This document shows positions 57,544-58,725 of a DNA stretch of 60,030 nt, one piece after another. The notes under the pieces were generated by a model. The model did not search any database. It saw only the letters and a program-made list of their open reading frames with translations, and was not told the origin of the DNA. This DNA is from Escherichia coli (GTDB lineage Bacteria; Pseudomonadota; Gammaproteobacteria; Enterobacterales; Enterobacteriaceae): NCBI RefSeq assembly GCF_003334785.1, contig NZ_QOWV01000021.1; one strand, written 5' to 3'. Numbering within the stretch: position 1 is the stretch's first letter; every line of letters starts with the position of its first letter. A program made the translations under genes and the position numbers.

Positions 57544-58034
57544 TTACTCTGCACAAGCATCAGGCAATCCAGCTCCAATATTTGTTATAAAATAATGCGT
57601 AACATTAATTTCACCAACAAAAAAAAGGTTTACACCATCCCCTTGCCCTGGTATCTTACCATATTTACACCACACTTTTTTTGTATCTGGATCATTCTTT
57701 GATACGATTTTCGCCACTTGTTCCCTGGCCCTCACTGTCAATGTTTTCTTAAACCTACCCCCATCATCATTTGTTAGGGAAAAATAAGGAAAAAATAATC
57801 ATCTTCTACATTTGTGTATATTGATATATCCACCGCTACGTGCGGAAAAAAATCTGGGAGCCATGTAAAAACTCCATCATTTTCTGGTATTGCCATATAG
57901 TTTATGTAATGTTTACTTACAAGAGATTCATCTTTGTATAAATAAAGATAAGTAATTACGCATAAAACAACAATGATTATAATAGCAAAAATAAATATTA
58001 TCATCTTTGATAGATTACTTGAGATAGCCAGCAT
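57544..58034 (-). pseudogene. candidate cognate immunity gene of the orphan Rhs toxin module, apparently split into two reading frames
   Basis: ORF 57774..58034 (ATG at 58034 or 58004) has an N-terminal TM helix and starts within 20 nt of the orphan toxin stop; ORF 57544..57741 continues in another frame from a TTG. Confidence 0.45.
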
Positions 58035-58725
58035 CTTGTAAAGCCTTTATCGTTTTTTTATGCTCTGGATTAATATAATCACTACATCTATCTGAGCAAT
58101 CTGTTGTTGATGGACATGTCAACCCATGGTCATTTACAGCCAAGTCTTTTTTATTATCTTCAATCATTTCAGAATGGGATAGCTTTACTTTTCTGCCGTA
58201 CATACCGAACAGATTTAACCCGTAATCTCTAATCTCTTTTTCATAACCCAGCCCTTTCGCCGATCGGCTAACACCAGCGTCATTTAATTTAGACACTCGA
58301 CAAAATGCCATACAATGGAAAAATTGATCAGTCCCACCTAAATTTAATCTCTTCATATCTTCATAAGTATCAGATAATATATCCCATGCTCTTTGATGGT
58401 TTAGTTGATCTTTTCTTCTTATTAGCGCTACATCTGCGGGACTTAACCCTAATGGATCAATACCATTCACCGGATTCAGCGGATACGCATACAGACTCCA
58501 TCCCCCCTCCAGCCCTATCGGGTCCTGAGTGATATACCGCCCCTGCAACGGATCGTAGTACCGGTTCCGGTTGTAGTACAGCCCCGACTCCTTATCATAC
58601 TGCTGCCCCGGCAGCCGGTACGGCTGGTGCAGGTGATGCGGGTTCTCTTCATTCAGCTGGTTGCCCCACTCATCATACTCCCCGCTCCACGCAATGTTTC
58701 CATCCGCATCCATCAGCGCCAGCAT
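58015..58725 (-). CDS. orphan Rhs fragment: about 94 aa of Rhs core end (ending IDPLGL) plus a 142 aa variable C-terminal toxin domain
   Basis: N-terminal part near-identical to the rhsD core end; DPxGL demarcation motif; divergent AT-rich C-terminus; ATG overlaps ybbC stop (TAATG). Confidence 0.8.

Follow-up and report, generated by a model that had tools for sequence, protein, structure and literature searches.

A displaced Rhs C-terminal module with a serum amyloid A-family tip downstream of rhsD in Escherichia coli

Introduction

What is ylbH, the short reading frame that follows rhsD and ybbC in K-12-like Escherichia coli, and does it still have a role in the cell that carries it? The question is raised by a stretch of DNA of 60,030 nucleotides (NCBI RefSeq assembly GCF_003334785.1, contig NZ_QOWV01000021.1), here called the window at its full length, which contains the rhsD region of a K-12-like E. 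coli. On the minus strand, positions 58015–58725 hold an open reading frame (ORF) whose coordinates are the same as those of the pseudogene ylbH (b0499) in strain MG1655 (NC_000913.3, 527949–528659). A previous sequence-only reading of the window had recognised an orphan Rhs core end and toxin cassette here, could not assign its C-terminal domain to a toxin family, and suggested that it might be translationally coupled to ybbC rather than silent. Mentions of ylbH in the literature are incidental only.

The analysis presented here suggests that ylbH is probably the displaced C-terminal end of the Rhs protein formerly encoded at the ybbP–selU locus, where many strains encode it to this day. Its tip would be a serum amyloid A (SAA)-family toxin domain that acts in the periplasm, and the copy in the window is probably silent.

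The orphan module

The module consists of the end of an Rhs core followed by an unrelated tip.

58015..58725, minus strand: ylbH ORF, the orphan Rhs module; 236 aa plus stop, ATG start (ORF list, K-12 annotation)
58444..58725, minus strand: Rhs core-end fragment, ylbH residues 1–94, through DPLGL (NF041261, TIGR03696)
58444–58482, minus strand: PxxxxDPxGL demarcation and self-cleavage motif, ylbH residues 82–94
58018..58443, minus strand: SAA-like (prok-SAA/Lipocone) toxin tip, residues 95–236, 142 aa (Pfam SAA, family profile, structure model, Foldseek)

ylbH is an orphan, displaced Rhs C-terminal module. Residues 2–94 match positions 1169–1261 of the 1261-position RHS_core model NF041261 (E 2e-50), and the same residues match Rhs_assc_core, TIGR03696 (E 3e-24). 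The Prokaryotic Genome Annotation Pipeline (PGAP) labels the frame ‘RHS repeat-associated core domain-containing protein’, incomplete, with the N-terminus missing. The core fragment has a GC content of 57%, compared with 37% for the tip. Gene order on the minus strand is rhsD (3' end), ybbC, ylbH, ybbD, ylbI, ylbG, selU/mnmH, allS, allA, allR and gcl. The profile matches and this order confirm that the cassette lies directly after rhsD and ybbC. The 142-residue C-terminal domain had also been described as unrelated to the C-terminus of rhsD, and this holds, as a BLASTP comparison of residues 95–236 with the rhsD tip showed no similarity (E 0.47).

A serum amyloid A domain at the tip

The features of the tip that bear on its assignment are as follows.

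58312–58335, minus strand: GTDQFFHC motif, residues 131–138
58315–58317, 58234–58236, 58156–58158 and 58144–58146, minus strand: pocket residues H137, E164, D190 and D194, respectively; the pocket residues D167, N198 and G201 also lie in the tip
Within 58018..58443, minus strand: conserved cysteines C138, C142, C210 and C214

The whole ORF matches Pfam SAA weakly, at E 1.3e-3, and the tip alone matches it at E 3.6e-4. A profile built from five sequences found SAA as its sole, non-significant PDB match. An exhaustive hidden Markov model (HMM) search of 1.84 billion representatives returned 121 relatives of the tip at E<=1e-3. The domain stands at the extreme C-terminus in nearly all of these, a DPxGL-type motif lies upstream in 52 of 112, and some relatives end in ...YRPAGLPAEY or ...GLPEKY, as animal SAA does. 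An alignment of 71 tip homologues (alignment A3, with conservation given in ylbH numbering) was used to characterise the family. Pfam SAA (PF00277) is matched by 53 of the 71 at E<=1e-3 (best 2e-26). The family profile recovers SAA crystal and fibril chains from the PDB at E 5.7e-17 to 1.2e-8, with the next match at 0.089. Columns D133, H137, C138, E164, D194, N198, C210 and C214 are invariant, conservation reaches at least 90% at M124, C142, D167, D190 and G201, and no residue of either set is missing from the window copy.

The AlphaFold2 (AF2) model of the tip is of high confidence (predicted local distance difference test, pLDDT, 96.6; predicted template modelling score, pTM, 0.89), with helices at model residues 2–33, 39–51, 56–78, 90–108, 116–123 and 129–137. 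An earlier run on a five-sequence alignment reached a pLDDT of 59 and was set aside. When the model was compared with the PDB by Foldseek, ranks 1–7 were all SAA (SAA1, SAA3; probability 1.00, target TM 0.68–0.75), followed by noise. Against AFDB50, the leading matches are Rhs tips of E. coli, Shigella, Hafnia, Salmonella, Gallibacterium, Delftia and Xanthomonas. Later matches include bacterial and animal SAA, and proteins fused to MuF (‘phage head morphogenesis’).

Profiles and model together indicate that the tip is a genuine domain of the SAA family (PF00277), homologous to animal SAA. It is predicted to form a soluble four-helix cone with a short extra helix, in which the His, Glu and Asp residues of the pocket are intact. 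The profile and structure searches of residues 95–236 that the sequence-only reading had suggested thus supply the family that it could not name. They also explain the resemblance of GTDQFFHC to the GSDKYFHA segment of SAA, considered there as perhaps coincidental: the motif belongs to a conserved helix-2 segment of a real homology.

SAA is grouped by comparative genomics with Wnt, TelC, VanZ, PTDSS and others in the Lipocone superfamily (Burroughs, Aravind and co-workers, bioRxiv 10.1101/2025.01.14.632903). In that study, prok-SAA is listed among the families taken up as tips of polymorphic toxins, with type VI secretion system and MuF delivery and with membrane-anchored immunity proteins. 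The inferred ancestral pocket has a His in helix 2, a Glu in helix 3 and an Asp in helix 4, and the SAA–Wnt clade has a helix-4 motif sNxxGR (10.1101/2025.01.14.632903). The ylbH tip belongs to these prok-SAA toxin tips, although the text and supplement of that paper mention neither ylbH nor YbbD.

NCBIfam and PADLOC scans found nothing for the tip, and weak matches to Peptidase_C7 (E 0.02) and OCRE were judged to be noise. The labels ‘Deoxyribonuclease RhsC’ (UniProt A0ABD7W963) and ‘type IV secretion protein Rhs’ occur on the 236-aa protein and its fragments, and no domain evidence was found behind them.

The same tip on full-length Rhs proteins

A word-index protein search returned only fragments of up to 236 aa, as if the tip were solely an orphan. 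This was disproved by the exhaustive search and by complete genomes. In other complete genomes, the corresponding chromosomal position, bounded by ybbP on one side and ylbI–ylbG–mnmH on the other, carries the tip as follows.

O121 RM8352: Rhs intact, 1396 aa; YbbD intact, 163 aa
F9792 (same match as two O169:H41 strains): Rhs intact, 1400 aa; YbbD intact, 163 aa
OkiPb01695: Rhs with an internal stop; YbbD intact, 163 aa
O157:H7 PA20: Rhs intact, 1398 aa; YbbD of 86 aa
O111:H8 TW05614: Rhs frameshifted; YbbD split

The rhsD-type tip and ybbC are absent from the locus in these five strains. Over its 429 nt, the window tip matches those of O121, F9792, OkiPb01695 and O111 at every nucleotide, and a single substitution separates it from that of O157. 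By a rough estimate, the contiguous form occurs in about 850–890 complete genomes, compared with 1838 for the orphan form. The N-terminus of the full-length carriers shows DUF6531 and a faint PAAR signal, and the delivery route is assumed.

When K-12 is compared with O121, a block of 1196 nt, comprising a core end, the resident tip and ybbC, lies between two alignable parts, and identity drops to 86–92% in the last 300 nt before it. This difference fits C-terminal displacement by an incoming cassette. The elements of the proposed displacement in the window are listed below.

59133..60030, minus strand: rhsD 3' end, running off the window; a core-end copy, then the unrelated resident tip
58725..59093, minus strand: ybbC, immunity gene of the resident rhsD tip (YbbC/YhhH family)
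58532..58565, minus strand: 34-bp longest perfect match of the ylbH core fragment to the core end of rhsD, where a crossover for re-fusion might occur (ungapped comparison)

The rhsD core-end copy at 59636–59921 forms a direct repeat with the core fragment of ylbH, with 79% identity over 286 bp in an ungapped comparison, and the 34-bp stretch is the sole identical run of 15 bp or more. PGAP labels some of these rhsD genes ‘DUF4329 domain-containing protein’.

Synonymous differences between the orphan tip and the deployed alleles number zero. Consequently, the ratio of nonsynonymous to synonymous substitution (dN/dS) is uninformative, and a relic and a silent reserve are inseparable by sequence. 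Draft contigs L003 and L004, in which Rhs is fused to the tip, start inside the repeat and were not relied on, complete genomes being used in their place. L004 (positions 1–1808, GCA_012214185.1) encodes an Rhs with an SAA-like tip whose core is about 1.9 kb short of that of K-12 rhsD; either the deletion is genuine and internal, or assembly across repeats has produced an artefact.

The junction and the start codon

The point at which ybbC meets ylbH is the displacement junction.

58723..58727, minus strand: TAATG, in which the ybbC stop (58725–58727) overlaps the ylbH ATG (58723–58725)

The junction reads ...AGT AAA TAA TGC TGG..., and the nucleotide reported to be shared by stop and start is indeed base 58725, the last A of the ybbC TAA and the A of the ylbH ATG. 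Alignment with the rhsD core end shows that core homology starts at the G of the ATG (orphan TAA-T-GCTGGCGCT, rhsD core CC-GCTGGCGCT). The start codon was therefore made by the junction: its A closes the ybbC stop, its G opens the old core, and one further base lies between them. The same TAATG is shared by 1838 of the 5426 complete genomes of E. coli and is 100% identical in every sampled row that spans the junction. It is a single historical event whose persistence is uninformative on selection, and a single junction offers no independent replicates for judging whether the in-frame ATG exceeds accident.

Little around this codon points to expression. No Shine-Dalgarno-like sequence was found in the 35 nt upstream of the ylbH ATG. 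Promoter-like sites occur at chance level (10, compared with 7.4 +/- 2.5 in shuffled sequence), and a terminator scan also found nothing above chance. Other orphan copies of the tip, in a second E. coli type, Hafnia, Rahnella and CP029992.1, start at different, unrelated points. The ylbH product lacks a signal peptide, with a top 19-residue hydropathy (KD19) of 0.63. Taken together, the junction-made ATG and these observations leave the suggestion that the frame is coupled rather than silent without support. Compared with the features expected of Salmonella-type internal expression, ylbH has the start codon, but its promoter-like sites are at chance, its antitoxin gene is frameshifted and its features favour the periplasm.

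The candidate immunity gene ybbD

Immediately downstream of the tip, and overlapping its stop codon, is ybbD.

57774..58034, minus strand: ybbD 5' part, 86 aa, with an N-terminal membrane helix and ‘YbbD head’; overlaps the ylbH stop by 20 nt
57544..57741, minus strand: ybbD 3' part, out of frame, a 65-aa ORF (NF011298 99–163/163, alignment A5)
57790..57795, minus strand: shortened ybbD T-run, T6CC where intact alleles have T8C (alignment with O121 RM8352 and F9792)
57790–57795 and near 57620, minus strand, in the window, and 5989–6249 in locus L008: YbbD short-form and T-run sites

The 5' ORF matches NF011297 over positions 1–86 of 86 and NF011298 over 1–85 of 163, and the one-base loss at 57790–57795 is the frameshift that truncates YbbD in the window. 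Intact YbbD has a single strongly hydrophobic N-terminal helix (KD19 3.4, residues 12–30); the label YbbD_head (PF26610) was taken from precomputed matches on homologues. In the orphan array of CP029992.1, a 173-aa YbbD_head protein follows a tip of 49% identity, and elsewhere a tip of 42% identity is followed by a 168-aa membrane protein that can be aligned with YbbD. Thus, the pairing of toxin and YbbD is conserved, with a full-length YbbD of approximately 163–173 aa, and comparison of these loci indicates that ybbD is probably the cognate immunity gene of the ylbH tip, truncated in the window. The sequence-only reading was right to see a candidate immunity gene downstream; the frameshift had gone unnoticed.

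Short forms of YbbD recur. The gene contains two T8 runs, and the window allele is shifted at the first, the second lying near 57620 (minus strand). A 149-aa YbbD cluster (351 members) is shifted at the second run, and Hafnia alvei has an 86-aa YbbD form in the same shifted frame as the window. Such recurrence may reflect repeated slippage, or the short form may be functional; the two runs might even be slippage switches that turn immunity on and off.

The CP029992.1 array (locus L011, 1832–6183) carries an Ntox16 fragment, a DUF6714 protein, the SAA-like orphan with its YbbD_head protein, and TseH with Imm58. It is a multi-toxin reserve array, in which the start of the SAA-like orphan lies 12 nt after the upstream gene, without overlap.

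Other features of the locus

A further rhs remnant lies beyond ybbD.

57082..57177, minus strand: ylbI, a 32-codon copy of the Rhs N-terminus, cut off beside the helix-turn-helix fragment ylbG (translation, annotation)

The translation of ylbI, ISGKPAARQGDMPQYGGPIVQGSAGVLIVAPT, can be compared with MSGKPAARQGDMTQYGGPIVQGSAGVRIGAPT in RhsD. As ylbI copies the Rhs N-terminus, the locus also contains the start of another rhs gene. Truncated variants of ylbH are present in the protein collection. A 183-aa protein from an ENA contig (P0002) joins the first 46 residues of AllS to YlbH residues 101–236, which points to a sequenced strain, perhaps an E. coli whose genome was reduced by engineering, with a deletion that runs from allS to within ylbH.

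Proposed explanation and its alternatives

On balance, ylbH is probably the displaced C-terminal end of the former Rhs of this locus, bearing a periplasmic SAA-family toxin tip that is silent in the window. A cassette comprising a core end, a new tip and ybbC would have recombined into the resident rhs gene and pushed the old Rhs end 1196 bp downstream, and the ybbC stop would have been joined by accident to the old core, creating an in-frame ATG. In strains with the contiguous form, the full-length Rhs would deliver the tip into a neighbouring cell, where it would be released after DPLGL and act in the periplasm. The cysteines are conserved, the immunity protein is anchored, and TelC and BteO set a precedent, all of which suggests a periplasmic site. 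Most likely, the tip would attack a phosphate-linked head group, on a carrier lipid or a membrane lipid, as TelC attacks lipid II, and membrane-anchored YbbD would block the tip. Lipocone toxins are paired with immunity proteins that are lipoproteins or anchored in the membrane, and TelC shows activity outside the cytoplasm only (10.1101/2025.01.14.632903). In the window, the tip lacks both a delivery domain and an export signal, and its immunity gene is frameshifted, so it would be effectively silent. If translated, it would be cytoplasmic and is expected to be harmless, which would explain why a broken ybbD is tolerated beside an intact toxin frame. The silent tip would matter only if recombination across the core-end repeat re-fused it onto rhsD, as has been shown experimentally for the orphan of Salmonella LT2 (PMC3967940).

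Several observations weigh against parts of this explanation. The repeat is a poor substrate, since 79% identity with a single 34-bp perfect run means that re-fusion would be rare. In principle, ribosomes could reinitiate at TAATG. K-12-type strains are not known to have a type VI secretion system. In O157:H7 PA20, an intact full-length Rhs–SAA toxin stands beside the 86-aa YbbD only, so either the short form is protective or the toxin goes unexpressed. In the ylbH subfamily, the helix-4 motif sNxxGR reads VNDHGL, with Asn invariant and Gly at least 90% conserved, and with Arg replaced by Leu. No prok-SAA toxin activity has been measured; cleavage or exchange of phosphate-linked lipid head groups is a proposal, measured for TelC and PTDSS1/2 only (10.1101/2025.01.14.632903). 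For the suggested lipid target, the sources are this comparative-genomics proposal and the case of TelC, which is only distantly related within the superfamily.

The alternatives differ in what they make of the same evidence. It is possible, if doubtful, that ylbH and ybbD are a pure relic, decaying with no present or future role, the intact frame reflecting only the short time since displacement. EcoCyc/RefSeq and PGAP annotate a pseudogene, the frameshift in ybbD and the truncated ylbH variants look like decay, and with zero synonymous differences from deployed alleles selection on the orphan is undemonstrable. However, tips on intact full-length Rhs have the identical nucleotide sequence, the recombination substrate remains, and reactivation of an orphan has been shown experimentally in Salmonella. 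At the other extreme, ribosomes might reinitiate after ybbC and yield a 236-aa cytoplasmic protein that acts in its producer, as in a type II toxin–antitoxin system. The TAATG overlap and the intact 236-aa frame would allow this. Salmonella Rhs orphans with internal core promoters and a start upstream of PxxxxDPxGL give a low-level toxic product (PMC7043789), a K-12 promoter survey places rhsD, ybbC and ylbH in one transcription unit with RpoD-holoenzyme sites near ylbH>ybbD (PMC3946193), and ylbH is among the differentially expressed genes of an array study (PMC3177180). Against such a coupled toxin stand the accidental ATG with no Shine-Dalgarno-like sequence upstream, promoter-like sites no commoner than in shuffled sequence and the unrelated starts of the other orphan copies. 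In addition, the antitoxin gene is frameshifted, yet the arrangement persists in about one third of complete E. coli genomes, and the conserved cysteines and membrane-anchored partner imply that the tip probably needs the periplasm, which an ORF without a signal peptide would not reach. Internal toxicity in the producer is therefore considered very improbable.

The last alternative concerns the mode of action rather than the history of the module. The tip might be non-enzymatic and bind a peptidoglycan-anchoring OmpA C-terminal-type domain in the periplasm, loosening the envelope, as is reported for BteO of Bacteroides fragilis. BteO is toxic in the periplasm, and the residues on which its toxicity and OmpA binding depend (R143/H144, H167/E168, D187 and D191; PMC12541434) follow the same order as H137, E164, D190 and D194 of ylbH. 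Mammalian SAA has also been reported to bind E. coli OmpA (cited in 10.1101/2025.01.14.632903). Nevertheless, no sequence similarity was detectable between the family profile and 9uu0, and invariant pocket His, Glu, Asp and Asn across 71 diverged sequences are the usual mark of catalysis. Furthermore, BtiO mimics the OmpA C-domain (PMC12541434), which YbbD may not do. A non-enzymatic tip of this kind is accordingly held to be unlikely, and the general statement, by analogy with BteO, that SAA-like tips kill by binding a periplasmic OmpA C-terminal-type domain and not by catalysis is less likely still. Were it true, the contact between mammalian SAA and bacterial OmpA would be an inherited contact between toxin and target, and BteO would be an unrecognised member of the SAA/Wnt-related superfamily.

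Significance

The pseudogene annotation, the class of Rhs orphan modules and the toxin family (2025) were known already, and the picture of Rhs orphan modules is unchanged. The main value of ylbH is as a convenient E. coli model for the function of SAA-type domains. What SAA does biochemically is still unsettled, and E. coli has a clear SAA homologue in which the proposed pocket residues are present, together with a conserved partner gene and strains that naturally carry the full-length form (O157:H7, O121). In this simple genetic system one can ask whether SAA-type domains act as enzymes on lipid head groups or bind OmpA, at what site they act and by what means they are blocked. For annotation, a supported domain assignment can replace the labels ‘Deoxyribonuclease RhsC’ and ‘type IV secretion protein Rhs’, and ylbH–ybbD can be described as the displaced former end of the rhsD locus.

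Comparison with known systems

In its tip, ylbH comes close to the prok-SAA class, of the SAW clade. As in that class, the SAA domain of ylbH lies at the extreme C-terminus of a polymorphic toxin and has a membrane-anchored immunity partner. The tip is likewise soluble, with four core helices and a short fifth, and it has a His in helix 2, a Glu in helix 3, and an Asp with Asn..Gly in helix 4. MuF fusions occur among the AFDB matches of the tip, and a MuF context is listed for prok-SAA. It differs in its helix-4 motif, VNDHGL instead of sNxxGR, and in its partner, a YbbD_head (PF26610) protein unlike the immunity domain with four conserved cysteines described in the paper.

In genetic arrangement, ylbH resembles the orphan rhs-CT/rhsI modules of Enterobacteriaceae, whose prototype is STM0292 in Salmonella Typhimurium LT2 (PMC3967940; PMC3150448). 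Both consist of a core-end fragment, a tip and their own immunity gene, for ylbH the candidate ybbD, downstream of the principal rhs/rhsI pair and in the same orientation. In both cases, full-length Rhs proteins of other strains carry the tip too, and a direct repeat with the main gene offers a substrate for re-fusion. The Salmonella repeat is 522 bp long at 95% identity, whereas that of ylbH is 286 bp at 79% with one 34-bp run. Unlike STM0292, ylbH has a frameshifted immunity gene and a junction-made ATG that overlaps the upstream stop.

Two toxins offer precedents for the mode of action. TelC of Streptococcus intermedius, a lipid II phosphatase toxin (prok-TelC) with the immunity protein TipC, belongs to the same superfamily according to the 2025 paper; its toxin and immunity protein are both extracytoplasmic, and it is the sole biochemical precedent for the proposed head-group cleavage. 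It belongs to another clade and depends for delivery on a type VII system and an LXG domain, and no direct sequence or fold match with the ylbH tip was obtained. BteO, with its immunity protein BtiO (PDB 9UU0; PMC12541434), is a type VI, periplasmic effector whose functional His, Glu and D-x3-D occur in the same order as in ylbH. In contrast, it is reported to be non-enzymatic and to bind OmpA C-like domains, its immunity protein mimics OmpA, and no sequence similarity was detected.

Lastly, vertebrate SAA (PF00277; PDB 4IP8, 4Q5G, 7ZH7) is a secreted acute-phase apolipoprotein that lacks the cysteines of the ylbH subfamily and is approximately 16–20% identical to the tip. Even so, the family profile matches it at E 1e-13 to 6e-17, and the GxDxxFH and D...ANxxG segments of vertebrate SAA align with the tip of ylbH.

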